Source: Candidatus Saccharimonadota bacterium (lineage in GTDB: Bacteria > Patescibacteriota > Patescibacteriia > 2-12-FULL-60-25). From it: 32,000 bases of DNA. The translations under genes were made by a program, and so were the position numbers. How positions within the stretch are numbered: the first letter of the stretch is position 1; every line of letters begins with the position of its first letter. Below are positions 16,376 through 24,443 of this stretch, piece by piece. The stretch is taken from positions 600,001 through 632,000 of the forward strand of contig CP064964.1 in NCBI GenBank assembly GCA_016699205.1, read 5' to 3'. The notes below the pieces were generated by a model. The model searched no databases, was not told the DNA's origin, and was given only the letters and a program-made list of their open reading frames with translations.

Positions 16376-16404
16376 TTGACAAAATTTTGGCTTTGTGCTA
16401 TAGT
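16376..16404 (+). promoter_or_regulatory. Strong sigma70-type promoter at the start of Island B
   Basis: TTGACA (16376-16381), 17-nt spacer, TATAGT (16399-16404). Confidence 0.65.
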
Positions 16405-16480
16405 ATCTCGTTACGATGATCAACCTGAAAAGGCCAAGATCGTCGGAAACGACTTCCCAACAACACATAGCGAGGTGCGC

Positions 16481-16750
16481 ATGCGCAACGAGGTCCAGAT
16501 CGAGGTTCTGCTTCACAAGAGCTCTGGCACCGCCTTGGTGCGGACCGTCGACTACTCCGATCGGGAGTACCTGCTACTCCGCGCCACCGCCGAGCGTGAG
16601 CTCTGCTACCACGTCTTCGACGACGATCCCCTGCGCGACTTCGACAGCGGTCCGCGCTTCCAGGCGGTGGCGGCGCGTCACAGCAAGGACAAGGGCAGCC
16701 GCTTGCAGCGCATCGGCCGCAAGCCCCGCACGTTCCGCGACATGAACTAG
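16481..16750 (+). CDS. Hypothetical protein (89 aa), Island B gene 1
   Basis: First in-frame ATG downstream of the predicted TSS, with GAGG 5 nt upstream. Track ORF 16376-16750 trimmed. GC-rich third positions. Confidence 0.55.
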   Translation: MRNEVQIEVLLHKSSGTALVRTVDYSDREYLLLRATAERELCYHVFDDDPLRDFDSGPRFQAVAARHSKDKGSRLQRIGRKPRTFRDMN

Positions 16751-16957
16751 TCGCACTTCCCACGGTTGGCGGTCCCGACCTGATGCGAGCGATTGGTAGA
16801 TCGCTTACACAAAAGATGGCCGACGTTCCTTTTCTCTTGAGCCGCAGTGGTTAACACTCGGCTCCGCTCTCAGGTTTCCGACTCGATCGGAACTCTGATC
16901 TGCGGTAACGCATTTCACAAAAAAATATTCGTCTTGGAAGGAGAGCCAGGATACGTG

Positions 16958-17023
16958 TTCACGCATCATAGTCATAACCATACCGAACGGTCGGTTTGGA
17001 TGACGGTGAGTATGTTGCGTGAC
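16958..17023. repeat. Inverted-repeat element L2 (same family as 4139-4233)
   Basis: TTCACGCATCATA (16958-16970) and TATGTTGCGTGAC (17011-17023) with a 40-nt spacer. Shares the internal ACGGTGAG(A/T)ATG with L1. Confidence 0.75.
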
Positions 17024-17042
17024 CATGTTTTAGCTCCCCAAC

Positions 17043-17068
17043 CGAGACTCCCAAGTCTCGATTTTTTG
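17043..17068 (+). terminator. Rho-independent terminator (plus sense)
   Basis: CGAGACT-ccca-AGTCTCG followed by ATTTTTTG. Confidence 0.65.
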
Positions 17069-17082
17069 TTCTTGGGAACGCT

Positions 17083-17268
17083 TTGGAGGAGGAGCCCCCG
17101 TCGCAAGGCGGGAAAGATGCTCATGCGCGGTGTGGACTCGGATTCGTCTGGGACCACTCCATGTATGACTTCTCGGATCTGTCGGTCTTCGGACCTGAAT
17201 GGACCACCCGCCTCCAATGCGTTCCCAACAACATCGACTTATCAGACCTGAAGGAGATCCTCGCTTAG
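17083..17268 (+). CDS. Possible small protein (61 aa from TTG 17083, or 35 aa from ATG 17161)
   Basis: This frame has island-like GC-rich third positions (GAC TTC TCG GAT CTG TCG GTC TTC...). The stop codon sits inside a 9-bp hairpin (17260-17293). No convincing RBS. Confidence 0.25.
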   Translation: MEEEPPSQGGKDAHARCGLGFVWDHSMYDFSDLSVFGPEWTTRLQCVPNNIDLSDLKEILA

Positions 17269-17471
17269 GACCGAACACGGACCTCTAAGCGAGCGGCGAG
17301 GGAAACAGACTCGGCGGATTCGTCTGCCACATCTGCATGTACCAAACCATTAAAGATGAAACGGCTTCGGTCGTTCTCATCCCATCTCCGTCAGATCTGA
17401 TCCGTCGAAAGATGGATTGAACTTTCAAATCGGTGTGGAACTCACGTTCCATGCCCAGGATCCAGCTCATC

Positions 17472-17505
17472 ATCACGCAACATAATCATGACCATGATGC
17501 GTGAC
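17472..17505. repeat. Inverted-repeat element L3 (same family)
   Basis: ATCACGCAACATA (17472-17484) and CATGATGCGTGAC (17493-17505) with an 8-nt spacer, about 60 nt upstream of the gene 2 ATG. Confidence 0.75.
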
Positions 17506-17565
17506 CATGACGTGGAACCCGGGTGTGGCGCGGGATAATTTCACCCCCGAGCCAACAAGAGACAG

Positions 17566-22667: not shown

Positions 22668-22736
22668 ACCTTCAACCTCTAACCTGAGAGGATCTCGTTT
22701 CCACAACGAGATCTTCCACCCAATATATTTATCAGA

Positions 22737-22763
22737 CTGGATTCCCGCCTTCGCGGGAATGAC
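22737..22763. repeat. REP/MITE-like palindromic repeat, single copy inside Island B
   Basis: CTGGATTCCCGCCTTCGCGGGAATGAC, identical to the copy at 5025-5051. Confidence 0.85.
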
Positions 22764-22956
22764 AGGATGAATGTATCGGGGGGAATCCGTTTACGCGGAC
22801 TCTGAAACGCCCTGCGAGGTTACATAACCCTCGGACAATGATGCGTCTCAACCCCAAACAAAAACCTTGCGCCGGTGAAATGGTGGCGAGGCTGTAACTT
22901 CACAACAAAACCACAACGTTCAGTTTTCCCATCCGCTTAGGCGGAGAAAGGCAATT

Positions 22957-23964
22957 ATGACCAGCCAGAACGATCAGCGTGCGAACATCGTCTCCTTCCG
23001 CTTCCCGGTACCCAGCAAGGGCGCTGCGGCGCGCTTCTCCACGAAGCGCTTCCTCTACGAGGTGCAGAACGTGGAGGAGAAGCCGCTCGTCGAGGTCGAT
23101 GACGCGCCCGCGATGGTGCTCCGTGCCTCGGTCACGCTGCGCGTGTTCCACGAGGACTACGTCGACAGCGACGAGAAGCTCGCGGAGTTCGACAAGCTCA
23201 CGCCCGGTCTCAACGAGACCATTCGCGAGTTGACCCACGGCGTCTACACGAGCCGTGAGGAGAAGCTCAAGATCATGGTGAAGGGCCGCGGCGGCAAGCT
23301 CGAGGAGGGCAAGATGTCCGCCTACATCGTCGATCCGGCACGGAAGGACGGACGCAATGCTCTGGTGAACACGTTCTTCATGAACGAGATGCTCCAGGCC
23401 GCTTCCGGCGACGACCGCATGGACCGCATCATGCGCCGACACAAGCTGGCACTGCGTGGTCAGCGCGTCGACAAGCGCGTCGTCAGCGGTGCGAGCGAGG
23501 ATGCGGTCAACGCGAGCTTCCTGGGCTGGGTCTACATGGCCGAGCCTCGGGTGCCCACCGTCGACTACGAGCAGAAGACCGCAATCTTCAACTCGTACGA
23601 GGACATCGGGTTCGCGGTCTACATGCCGCTCTCGATGATCCGCGTGATCGCCAACCTCTACTACAAGATCCTCGAGTCGCGCTGGCGCAAGACGATCGAG
23701 GAGGATCACGAGATCGTCGCCGGTAGCAGCAAGGAGATCGGCGGCAAGAGCCGGCTCCTGCTCCCCGCGGGCCGCCAGGTCCAGAAGGAACGGAAGGCCG
23801 AGGCTCAGCAGCCCGCTGCCGACCAGACCTCGAAGCCGAAGCGCGACCGCAAGCCGCGCGGCAGCCGCAAGGACACTTCCGAGGTGAAGACCGAGGGCGA
23901 GACCGCGGCGGAGGCCAAGACCGACAGCAGCGAGCCCAGCTCGCCGCCGACGGCCGAGGCCTGA
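22957..23964 (+). CDS. Hypothetical protein (335 aa) with K/E/P/A-rich disordered C-terminal tail, Island B gene 9
   Basis: Track ORF. GGAGAAAGG precedes the ATG. The last 80 or so residues are low-complexity (KERKAEAQQPAADQTSKPKRDRKPRGSRKD...). Confidence 0.7.
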   Translation: MTSQNDQRANIVSFRFPVPSKGAAARFSTKRFLYEVQNVEEKPLVEVDDAPAMVLRASVTLRVFHEDYVDSDEKLAEFDKLTPGLNETIRELTHGVYTSREEKLKIMVKGRGGKLEEGKMSAYIVDPARKDGRNALVNTFFMNEMLQAASGDDRMDRIMRRHKLALRGQRVDKRVVSGASEDAVNASFLGWVYMAEPRVPTVDYEQKTAIFNSYEDIGFAVYMPLSMIRVIANLYYKILESRWRKTIEEDHEIVAGSSKEIGGKSRLLLPAGRQVQKERKAEAQQPAADQTSKPKRDRKPRGSRKDTSEVKTEGETAAEAKTDSSEPSSPPTAEA

Positions 23965-24005
23965 ACTGAACGCGAGGCGGATGCAGATCCGCCCACACTC
24001 TGGAC

Positions 24006-24050
24006 AGCCCCCGTTCCACTATCTGTGGAGCGGGGGCTTGTTCGTTTCTT
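24006..24050 (+). terminator. Rho-independent terminator of gene 9
   Basis: AGCCCCCGtTCCAC-tatct-GTGGAgCGGGGGCT followed by the T-rich TGTTCGTTTCTT. Confidence 0.7.
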
Positions 24051-24115
24051 GAATATACTTACTCTGGACAATCTTCCTGTTTTCTGATAGCGTATCAACC
24101 CCGGAGGTTAACAGA

Positions 24116-24289
24116 ATGAATGATGATCGAAAGACGCCTGTCAGTACGTGGCCACCACCTGGCCACAACGAGGAACGAGGAAACAGCGACCAGACGGTCG
24201 TTGCACCCATTCCGAAAGACCTCCTCAAGCGGATGATGGATTCCGGATCCGCGGCGATCGACGAGCCTGATGAGGACGTGCGTTCATGA
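24116..24289 (+). CDS. Possible small acidic protein (57 aa)
   Basis: Below the ORF-track cutoff. GGAGG (24103-24107) lies 8 nt before the ATG at 24116. Translation: MNDDRKTPVSTWPPPGHNEERGNSDQTVVAPIPKDLLKRMMDSGSAAIDEPDEDVRS. Confidence 0.4.
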   Translation: MNDDRKTPVSTWPPPGHNEERGNSDQTVVAPIPKDLLKRMMDSGSAAIDEPDEDVRS

Positions 24290-24372
24290 TGGGTTTCATG
24301 GCAACGCTCGTATTCATCTACCTCGTCGCCGACGATATCCACTCCGTCCTCAACCGTCGTACAAGGCGCTGA
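24286..24372 (+). CDS. Possible 28-aa hydrophobic peptide
   Basis: ATGA overlap with the preceding small ORF. Translation: MMGFMATLVFIYLVADDIHSVLNRRTRR, one short hydrophobic stretch plus a basic tail. A terminator follows. Confidence 0.3.
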   Translation: MMGFMATLVFIYLVADDIHSVLNRRTRR

Positions 24373-24402
24373 CCTCCTATTGGTCGCACCTTATCTCTCC
24401 AT

Positions 24403-24443
24403 CGCCCCGTCTGACACTCTTGTCGGAACGGGGCGTTTGCGTT
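24403..24443 (+). terminator. Rho-independent terminator closing Island B
   Basis: CGCCCCGTCTGACA-ctct-TGTCGGAACGGGGCG followed by TTTGCGTT. Confidence 0.65.

Follow-up and report, generated by a model that had tools for sequence, protein, structure and literature searches.

A vertically inherited gene cluster with conserved folded RNAs between rpoB and rodZ in Candidatus Uhrbacteria

We analysed a 32,000-nucleotide stretch of a bacterial genome (contig CP064964.1, positions 600,001 to 632,000; hereafter the window), in which a cluster of plus-strand genes between rpoB and rodZ, here called the island, separates two groups of core genes that all lie on the minus strand. The island is an old, vertically inherited operon specific to a clade of Candidatus Uhrbacteria and not a recent import, and its spacers hold conserved folded RNAs, two of which, RNA-1 and RNA-2, are new to Rfam. 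An earlier note on this DNA, made from the letters only, had offered two readings of the cluster: a domesticated remnant of a plasmid or virus, or a self-contained accessory module with extensive RNA-level control. The second is borne out by covarying spacer RNAs and by a unit conserved in relatives. We give a probability of about 0.5 to the reading in which these RNAs act in cis to control and stabilise the transcript of a module with at least one envelope component.

The source organism of the window is a Candidatus Uhrbacteria bacterium, the product of island gene g9 being identical to NCBI IPH19_03190. The window was compared with loci from related Uhrbacteria lineages, numbered L001, L004 and so on. 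A collinear cluster lies between rpoB and rodZ-ftsK-recA in L001-L005, L007-L013, L015-L016 and L018-L019. Position and gene order are shared by at least eight related lineages, in which core proteins retain 76-95% identity. This answers the earlier suggestion that the conservation of the gene neighbourhood be checked. The island proteins of L011 were missed by tblastn; profile hidden Markov models recovered g4, g8, g9 and, weakly, g6, in the right order. The g9 family comprises nine clusters among 5.8 billion proteins. A profile search of 1.84 billion representative proteins gave 10 matches, nine of them true relatives, and every relative with a readable neighbourhood lies in this cluster context, including those with E-values of 1e-13 to 1e-4. 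The GTDB species-representative genomes, which do not include this clade, gave no match to the g9 profile or to the conserved S5 DNA motif, and look-ups by exact sequence returned no record for either g9 or RecA of the window.

Within this fixed setting, the island proteins evolve 10-30 times faster than those of their neighbours. The ratio of nonsynonymous to synonymous substitution rates (dN/dS) was 0.17-1.3 in island genes, with lower dS, and 0.016-0.07 in core genes. Against L001, core genes had dN/dS of 0.016-0.03 (0.11 for o306 and comEC) and dS of 0.26-0.83, compared with 0.17-0.84 and 0.09-0.55 in the island. Against L008, core proteins retained 86-90% identity (comEC 70%, o306 67%), g9 24% and g8 31%. 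Several spacers are 92-100% identical among close lineages, and 72-84% identity remains in L007-L009, where core synonymous sites are saturated.

Two of these spacers carry large structured RNAs:

17064-17450, plus strand: RNA-1, about 390 nucleotides (nt), built of two multi-helix domains with a long closing helix each.
21040-21190, plus strand: RNA-2, about 150 nt in the leader of g7, folding into a three-way junction with conserved junction sequences.

Domain I of RNA-1 (17068-17232) is closed by a 22-bp helix formed by UUGGAGGAGG with CCGCCUCCAA. Domain II occupies 17234-17408, a 3' hairpin lies at 17437-17450, and the RNA carries several UUCG loops and two CGGAUUCGUCUG hairpins. In an alignment of six lineages, 94.3% of cells were paired over 116 predicted pairs, and 45 compensatory pairs were counted. 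Column shuffles gave 23.5 ± 2.9, with 0 of 500 attaining that count, and slid partners gave 3-8. RNA-1 was also found in L018, persists in L011 and in L007, where g1 is absent, and was detected in all seven lineages with contigs that reach the region.

RNA-2 starts about 10 nt past a conserved promoter-like site, P2. In its 22-bp closing helix, GGAGG of the 5' arm faces CCUCC of the 3' arm; downstream come a small hairpin, a CA-rich linker and the ribosome-binding site of g7. Over seven lineages, the 52 pairs of RNA-2 were 92.3% paired, with 17 compensatory pairs compared to 7.3 ± 1.7 in shuffles (again attained by 0 of 500) and far lower values in slid controls. A conserved fold with compensatory changes, as expected of a structured leader, was thus found for both RNA-1 (45) and RNA-2 (17). 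A small protein encoded in either RNA was considered and rejected, given a dN/dS of about 0.5-0.8 and the lack of any conserved reading frame.

Neither RNA matches a family in Rfam. No gathering-level match to Rfam 15, whose families include OLE, ROOL, GOLLD, HEARO, raiA, RNase P, tmRNA, 6S, SRP and riboswitches, was obtained in the whole window, and when the island, RNA-1 and RNA-2 were scanned with permissive settings, nothing rose above noise of at most 20 bits. A literature search on structured RNAs of Uhrbacteria or of the Candidate Phyla Radiation found no paper. The covariance model of RNA-2 matched only island copies and, weakly and strand-symmetrically, domain I of RNA-1; the two may conceivably share a design.

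The remaining spacers hold smaller conserved elements:

19081-19272, plus strand: spacer S3; its conserved hairpins include that at 19182-19226, and a stretch of 155 nt is 81% identical in L009.
19942-19970, plus strand: hairpin after the g4 stop codon, kept in relatives with a different stem sequence.
20911-20939 and 20949-20975, plus strand: two hairpins after the g6 stop codon, the second with a variable loop.
21756-21868, plus strand: spacer S6, leader of g8, with three conserved hairpins; 45 pairs, 14 of them compensatory.
22688-22716, plus strand: conserved hairpin past the stop codon of g8; other conserved elements follow in spacer S7, up to 22956.

The conserved hairpins of S3, S4, S6 and S7 typically stand directly after a stop codon, and some keep the stem while the sequence changes. 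The stems after g6 are invariant in five closer lineages and are kept in L011 by compensatory changes; S6 was found in L009, L011 and L017. In L005 (2720-3781) and L015 (7282-8346), g7 and g8 are fused into a gene of about 354 codons that abuts or overlaps g9, and P2, RNA-2, S6 and S7 are all missing, RNA-2 having been lost together with its promoter-like site. Their absence where the genes are fused fits cis-acting leaders. Spacer S2 measures 303 nt in the window (17848-18150) and about 830 nt in L001 and L002; the L001 version (4372-5203) contains a lineage-specific insertion with an extra gene call of 111 amino acids (aa).

The stability of these sequences was assessed as folding z-scores of 120-nt windows relative to dinucleotide-preserving shuffles. 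In the window, the mean z was -0.41 for core genes, -2.89 for spacers and -1.65 for island coding sequences; 63% of spacer windows fell below -2, compared with 11-12% of core mRNA windows (spacers versus core, p ~1e-12). The long, hairpin-rich spacers remarked on from inspection are therefore also unusual in quantitative terms. Similar values were obtained in L018 (core -0.40, spacers -2.71, island coding sequences -1.99) and in L011 (-0.19, -2.27 and -1.20, respectively), and island coding sequences differed from core in all three loci with p between 3e-11 and 9e-6. Because the shuffles preserve dinucleotides, composition alone does not explain the stability of the coding sequences. Over-structured coding sequences, low dS and a persistent excess of G+C at third codon positions (GC3) together suggest selection on RNA across the whole transcript.

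Putative signals for initiation and termination frame the island and its RNAs:

15966-16375: control region between the divergent rpoB and island genes; its conservation reaches the distant loci L011, L015 and L018.
16376-16404, plus strand: predicted promoter P1, TTGACA, 17-nt spacer and TGcTATAGT extended -10; 11 of 12 consensus positions.
16414-16445, plus strand: 5' leader hairpin just past the inferred transcription start, with invariant alignment columns.
17043-17060, plus strand: terminator-like hairpin and U-run immediately 5' of RNA-1, kept in L007 and L011 with other stem sequence.
20998-21026, plus strand: internal promoter-like site P2, TTGACA, 17-nt spacer and TATCTT; -35 conserved in five lineages.
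24006-24038, plus strand: predicted intrinsic terminator after g9, 14-bp stem and T-run, conserved in all loci.
24376-24621: right border, 76-89% identity in all loci.
24573-24593, minus strand: terminator downstream of rodZ, within the conserved right border.

Both hexamers of P1 are conserved in L001, L004, L007 and L011. The AT-rich intergenic region between rpoB and the island contains five TTGGCTAAT motifs within 16174-16355. Two of them form a 23-bp perfect palindrome, ATATTAGCCAATTTGGCTAATAT (16335-16357), adjoining the -35 hexamer of P1, and one perfect DnaA box, TTATCCACA, lies at 16252-16260; array, palindrome and box are conserved to L011. The array resembles a set of operators through which a regulator might act on P1, on the rpoB promoter or on both. 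A replication origin at this border was rejected, given a single perfect DnaA box, a window count not above chance and genes co-directed on both sides.

Repeats of the repetitive extragenic palindromic (REP) type are superimposed on this conserved layout:

16955-17030 and 17455-17520: REP-like inverted pair flanking RNA-1, outside the conserved RNA itself.
22739-22763: host REP copy GATTCCCGCCTTCGCGGGAATGACA in spacer S7.

The inverted pair occurs only in the lineage of the window, being absent from L001, L004 and L007. It contains ATGATGCGTGACCATG, for which further sites lie at 4143-4230, 21755 and 22838. The window is enriched in the 9-mer ATGATGCGT, with 22 matches versus 8.65 expected. 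The host REP copy, whose presence inside the island had been pointed out before, is found in the window, L001, L004 and L008 and is absent from L006 and L007. This polymorphism identifies it as a mobile insertion and not a part of the conserved spacer RNA.

From these elements we infer the following scheme, in which both the architecture of the transcript and the logic of its switches are conditional. P1, under the operator-like TTGGCTAAT array, would drive a long, highly folded polycistronic RNA. The terminator-like hairpin and RNA-1 would gate or stabilise expression of g2-g6, and the hairpins right after most stop codons would protect or segment the cistrons. P2 and RNA-2 would control g7-g9, the closing helix of RNA-2 sequestering a CCUCC strand that might otherwise bind the ribosome-binding site of g7. 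The terminator at 24006-24038 would end the main unit. The rapid, mosaic evolution of the proteins invites the speculation that they work at an interface under diversifying pressure, be it with the envelope, a host or a phage.

Several points weigh against this scheme. The covariation comes from only six or seven lineages, with structures predicted in the same alignments, and pairing of GGAGG with CCUCC is generic in purine-rich leaders. RNA-1 lies downstream, not upstream, of the terminator-like hairpin, so it may not act in cis and could be a stand-alone RNA. The link between coding-sequence structure and GC3 could run the other way, although the dinucleotide-preserving shuffles speak against a pure effect of composition. 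Promoters, terminators and transcript ends are consensus matches backed by conservation, and the envelope or interface role is drawn only from g6, a 28-aa hydrophobic peptide and the evolutionary pattern.

The position of RNA-1 also counts in favour of the main rival, a ribonucleoprotein module in which RNA-1, and perhaps RNA-2, would be processed out and act as a scaffold or in trans with proteins of the island, for instance g2, the membrane-anchored g6 and g9, whose tail is basic, in the manner of OLE RNA and its Oap proteins. At about 390 nt, with two domains and many UUCG loops, RNA-1 looks more like a stable structural RNA than like a leader, and it is present in all seven reachable lineages irrespective of the gene downstream, which is g2 in the window and another one in L007 and L011. 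Several of the proteins have basic tails and a membrane protein is co-encoded. Tight RNA-protein partners, however, would not be expected to combine very fast proteins with conserved RNAs, and profile scans detected no RNA-binding domain in any island protein. RNA-2, S6 and S7 were moreover lost exactly where compaction of the operon makes leaders unnecessary. We consider a ribonucleoprotein doubtful, and less likely than cis-acting control.

The base composition of the genes bears on two further explanations. GC3 was 0.68-0.93 in island genes versus 0.50-0.70 in 15 flanking genes. Codon fractions differed accordingly between the island and rpoBC, recA and gyrA: GAG 0.85 versus 0.34, CGG 0.23 versus 0.00, CCC 0.46 versus 0.05, AGC 0.42 versus 0.10 and TGC 0.81 versus 0.15. 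The island prefers GAG, GGC, TGC, AGC, CCC, CGG and CTG, whereas the core prefers GAA, GGT and TGT and avoids CGG, CCC and CTG. These counts agree with the earlier description of island codons as dominated by C- and G-ending types unlike those of gyrA, rpoBC and recA. The shift is one towards G/C endings across the board and not an exaggerated host optimum. Extreme translational optimisation was accordingly rejected as its cause, the island using CGG, CCC, GGG, CTG and GAG, which rpoBC, recA and gyrA avoid.

The GC3 excess was present in each lineage examined. In L018, core GC3 is 0.37-0.50, yet g4 reaches 0.93 and g2 0.82. Over all examined lineages, including this one with its low-GC core, g4 stays at 0.85-0.93, compared with 0.58-0.70 for the nearby g6. 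Since the excess is kept in every lineage, even beside a low-GC core, the anomaly is maintained and is not the decaying trace of a donor; the reading of this codon usage as foreign, and hence as a sign of a mobile element, falls with it. We regard selection on the RNA itself, for stability or structure, as the best explanation.

The main alternative to RNA-level selection for the over-structured coding sequences and their GC3 is GC-biased gene conversion at a recombination hotspot, in which allele exchange would raise both GC3 and dN/dS and the structure of the coding RNA would be an unselected by-product. Identities among the window, L001, L003 and L004 are mosaic and incongruent: g3 is 91% identical to its L001 counterpart and 76% to that of L004, g7 91% and 64%, and g9 65% and 79%, whereas core genes are equidistant from L001 and L004. 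The C-terminal tail of g9 (window 23770-23961; P0004, P0005, P0013, P0015) carries a coiled-coil insert of about 55 aa, SETLDER..LTxELxxFExKAEAAKGTPDEA..., shared by homologues with only remotely related globular domains, which suggests that tail modules may have been exchanged between alleles. Together with the mosaic identities, this insert points to allele exchange. The elevated dN/dS and the general rise of G/C-ending codons, including those that highly expressed core genes avoid, would likewise be expected from conversion. The spacers do not fit, being conserved and without GC enrichment although they lie in the same hotspot. Neither does the excess stability of the coding sequences, which exceeds what composition alone gives and is replicated in three lineages, nor the sharp contrast in GC3 between g4 and g6, which is consistent from lineage to lineage. 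Gene conversion may thus have shaped the alleles, but we think it unlikely to account for the composition and folding of the island, for which selection on RNA remains our preferred explanation.

An older origin as a mobile element has also to be considered, in which a GC-rich plasmid or virus integrated beside rpoB in the ancestor of the clade and then lost its mobility genes. The composition and codon choice of the island differ in kind from those of the host core, all of its proteins are ORFans, and it has what appear to be its own promoter and operator-like array. Orthologues of g8, moreover, carry a borderline DUF2786 motif, a domain that is annotated mainly in phage and other bacterial hypothetical proteins. 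No tRNA was found anywhere in the window, no recombinase or integrase domain in the island or flank proteins scanned, no Rep, capsid or terminase in profile scans of the island proteins, and no long flanking direct repeat was reported by the repeat search; the borders had been described in the same terms before. IMG/VR scans with the RNA-1 motif, g9 and g6 gave no match, and GenBank phages and PLSDB plasmids contained no related sequence. Locus and gene order are fixed in the at least eight diverged lineages. The GC3 has not drifted to the host value despite saturated core synonymous sites and is independent of host GC, so it is actively maintained and not a relic. We therefore judge a captured element improbable, and the remnant proposed in the earlier note finds no support. 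Nor does the island look like a recently acquired genomic island, prophage or integrative and conjugative element, since no integrase, tRNA or long flanking direct repeat was found, its locus and gene order do not vary wherever the flanks were readable, and the virus and plasmid collections scanned hold no relatives. An integron array is equally at odds with the absence of an integrase from the window, with hairpins after the open reading frames (ORFs) that differ from one another, and with a conserved gene order.

The genes themselves, with coordinates given after refinement of start codons, are as follows:

16481-16750, plus strand: g1, 89 aa, basic; hypervariable and optional.
17566-17847, plus strand: g2, 93 aa, helical; the best-conserved small island protein, with a strongly structured coding sequence.
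18151-19080, plus strand: g3, 309 aa; N-terminal third hypervariable, C-terminal two-thirds conserved.
19273-19935, plus strand: g4, 220 aa, basic, TTG start.
20061-20315, plus strand: g5, 84 aa, acidic; coupled to g6 by a TGATG overlap.
20315-20899, plus strand: g6, 194 aa; N-terminal membrane helix and four cysteines.
21238-21735, plus strand: g7, 165 aa, acidic, GTG start.
21900-22667, plus strand: g8, 255 aa, GTG start; DUF2786-like helical motif at about residues 125-160.
22957-23964, plus strand: g9, 335 aa; conserved alpha/beta domain at about residues 1-270 and a disordered charged tail ending in TAEA.
24116-24289, plus strand: g10, 57 aa, acidic; ATGA overlap with the 28-aa peptide.
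24286-24372, plus strand: 28-aa hydrophobic peptide, overlapping g10.

These 10 or 11 genes extend over 16481-24372, with coding sequence making up 68% of the island and spacers 32%. On the minus strand, gyrA, a metallo-beta-lactamase-fold gene, ruvC, rpoC and rpoB lie to the left, and a RodZ-like HTH_25 gene, ftsK, recA and comEC to the right, so the antiparallel arrangement of ORFs described from the first reading was recovered, as was the TGATG coupling of g5 and g6. The product of g1 shares 47% identity with its L001 counterpart, can no longer be recognised in L004 and is missing from L007. Of the small additional genes proposed earlier, g10 and the 28-aa peptide were retained; an ORF of 57 aa at 20985-21158 was rejected, as it overlies the conserved RNA-2 and its reading frame is not conserved. 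Another fast-evolving gene of the window lies outside the island, downstream of recA (29283-30203, minus strand). It encodes 306 aa at 62% GC, with a weak MopE-type metal-binding motif, and its product is 88% identical in L001, where its neighbours are 95-99% identical, and 42-67% in distant loci.

It is most implausible that the plus-strand ORFs are an annotation artefact concealing a non-coding region or the product of an 843-aa antisense ORF (17848-20379, minus strand), which is very long and extends across g3, g4, g5, spacers S3-S4 and the 3' portion of S2, since the plus frames show codon periodicity (GC1/2/3 of about 0.62/0.42/0.68-0.93, with GC3 far above GC2), their proteins align across lineages with in-frame indels down to 24-50% identity, most of the genes have dN/dS below 1 and each is preceded by a GGAGG-type ribosome-binding site, whereas the antisense frame has a shadow-like GC1 of 0.80 and is broken in relatives into open stretches of 256-659 codons. 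Gene callers chose minus-strand ORFs over this region in L001 and L003. The long minus-strand ORFs inside the island are shadows, a by-product of its high GC3. In L003, contig Ga0558118_02202 (1-2143) has rpoB split into several ORFs and some island genes frameshifted, with DNA near-identical to that of the window; these defects look like assembly or sequencing indel errors and not pseudogenes.

Profile searches and structure prediction, which had been proposed as checks, revealed no known homologue or fold. None of g1-g9 gave a significant match in Pfam, PHROGs, PADLOC or NCBIfam profile scans, and PDB sequence searches with family profiles of g3, g6 and g9 found nothing. No defence-system model of PADLOC-DB 2.0 matched, the sole entry being a chance-level hit of JetC to g8 (E = 0.04). 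The earlier impression that the proteins bear no recognisable signature needs one amendment. DUF2786 (PF10979; gathering cut-off 23.9 bits) scored 24.9 bits in the g8 orthologue of L017, 21.0 in L005, 20.0 in L018 and 17.4 in L015, all at the homologous position; the g8 of the window itself was not significant. The short motif is thus borderline; the domain is annotated in phage and mycobacterial proteins.

The 28-aa peptide and g6 are the only hydrophobic products of the island and the only ones assigned to the envelope. An AlphaFold2 model of g6 (predicted local distance difference test score, pLDDT, 82.5; predicted template modelling score 0.76) consists of a membrane helix followed by an all-beta sandwich domain, and we predict with confidence that g6 is a beta-sandwich protein anchored in the membrane. 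For this model, a Foldseek search of the PDB gave only noise from generic beta sandwiches. The membrane anchor and four cysteines read from the sequence at the outset are confirmed; two of the cysteines are invariant and two are lost in some lineages. The g9 model (pLDDT 57.5) comprises an alpha/beta domain and a disordered, K/E/P-rich tail, the latter likewise anticipated, and we hold this architecture with moderate confidence; Foldseek found no match to it in the PDB or among the BFVD viral models. Apart from g6 and the 28-aa peptide, the island encodes about nine soluble, charged proteins, g9 among them, and most of these are probably helical; structures were predicted only for g6 and g9.

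Two recurrent sequence features were noted among the proteins. A motif (A/V)F(F/L)(F/H)P(K/N) is common to g3, g4 and g5 (window 18539-18561, 19775-19797 and 20224-20243) and is followed in g3 and g4 by (M/V)N(S/D)xxL; the three genes also have a similar translation-initiation sequence, GGAGGYTCCTTC(C)ATG. The shared motif may be the remnant of an old internal duplication, although hhalign gave no significant score (E = 0.06), and comparisons between the g3, g4, g7 and g8 families revealed no significant paralogy. A terminal Ala or Ala-Ala is found in many island products, for example g2 with ...MAMAA (17833-17844), g3 with ...SLLA (19066-19077), g5 with ...TAEAA (20301-20312) and g9 with ...PPTAEA (23950-23961). 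Island products of L011 end in ...ATAAA, ...APAA, ...PEAA and ...RRAA. These termini resemble ssrA-like degradation tags and could confer rapid proteolytic turnover.

The structured RNAs are the most conserved parts of the island. They add at least two large RNA families, backed by covariation and not in Rfam, to those of the mostly uncultured Candidate Phyla Radiation, and the island is probably the mark of a trait peculiar to the lineage of these Uhrbacteria, perhaps one of the cell envelope or a host interface. It further indicates that a cluster-wide shift in GC3 and codon usage can be an old, maintained trait of a vertical locus, which composition-based calls of gene transfer would misread. 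Slowly evolving RNA beside proteins that change 10-30 times faster, together with over-structured coding sequences, makes it a testable case of selection for mRNA structure on synonymous sites. We advance only tentatively a wider view of the island as an RNA-centred module, in which RNA-1 and RNA-2 would found new large RNA classes, either a membrane-associated ribonucleoprotein or new riboswitches, and the whole 8-kb transcript would be selected for its fold. Were it true, selection on folding, and not foreign origin, would explain the compositional anomaly since the divergence of the clade.

We found no described system with this combination of features, and each of the nearest ones shares part of it. 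Like genomic islands, prophage remnants and integron arrays, the cluster consists of co-oriented ORFan genes of atypical composition and opposite to their neighbours, with hairpins after the ORFs. It differs from them in its fixed order and position, in an unameliorated composition, in the absence of integrase, tRNA or a reported long flanking repeat, and in having no matches in virus or plasmid collections. OLE RNA of Firmicutes assembles with Oap proteins encoded beside it. As with OLE and OapA/B/C, a large structured RNA, conserved beyond what is expected of a spacer, here lies in an operon of lineage-restricted genes that includes one for a membrane protein. The likeness extends to this co-location only: there is no match to OLE in sequence or structure and no Oap-like protein, and several distinct RNAs are spread across the island operon.

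Riboswitches and protein-binding leaders, such as those of ribosomal-protein operons, are comparable to RNA-2 in size, in its junction, in a start close to a promoter-like site and in a closing helix with an anti-Shine-Dalgarno-like strand upstream of the g7 start, the RNA being lost together with that site. RNA-2 matches no known class, however, and RNA-1 is much larger than typical aptamers and follows a terminator-like hairpin. Finally, intercistronic hairpins and REP elements stabilise parts of polycistronic mRNAs, as in E. coli malEFG and Rhodobacter puf, and the predicted stable hairpins directly after stop codons between the presumably co-transcribed genes of the island recall them. True REP copies occur here too, but as insertion polymorphisms, whereas the hairpins of the island are specific to the locus, covary, outlast the proteins between which they stand and accompany coding sequences that are themselves over-structured.

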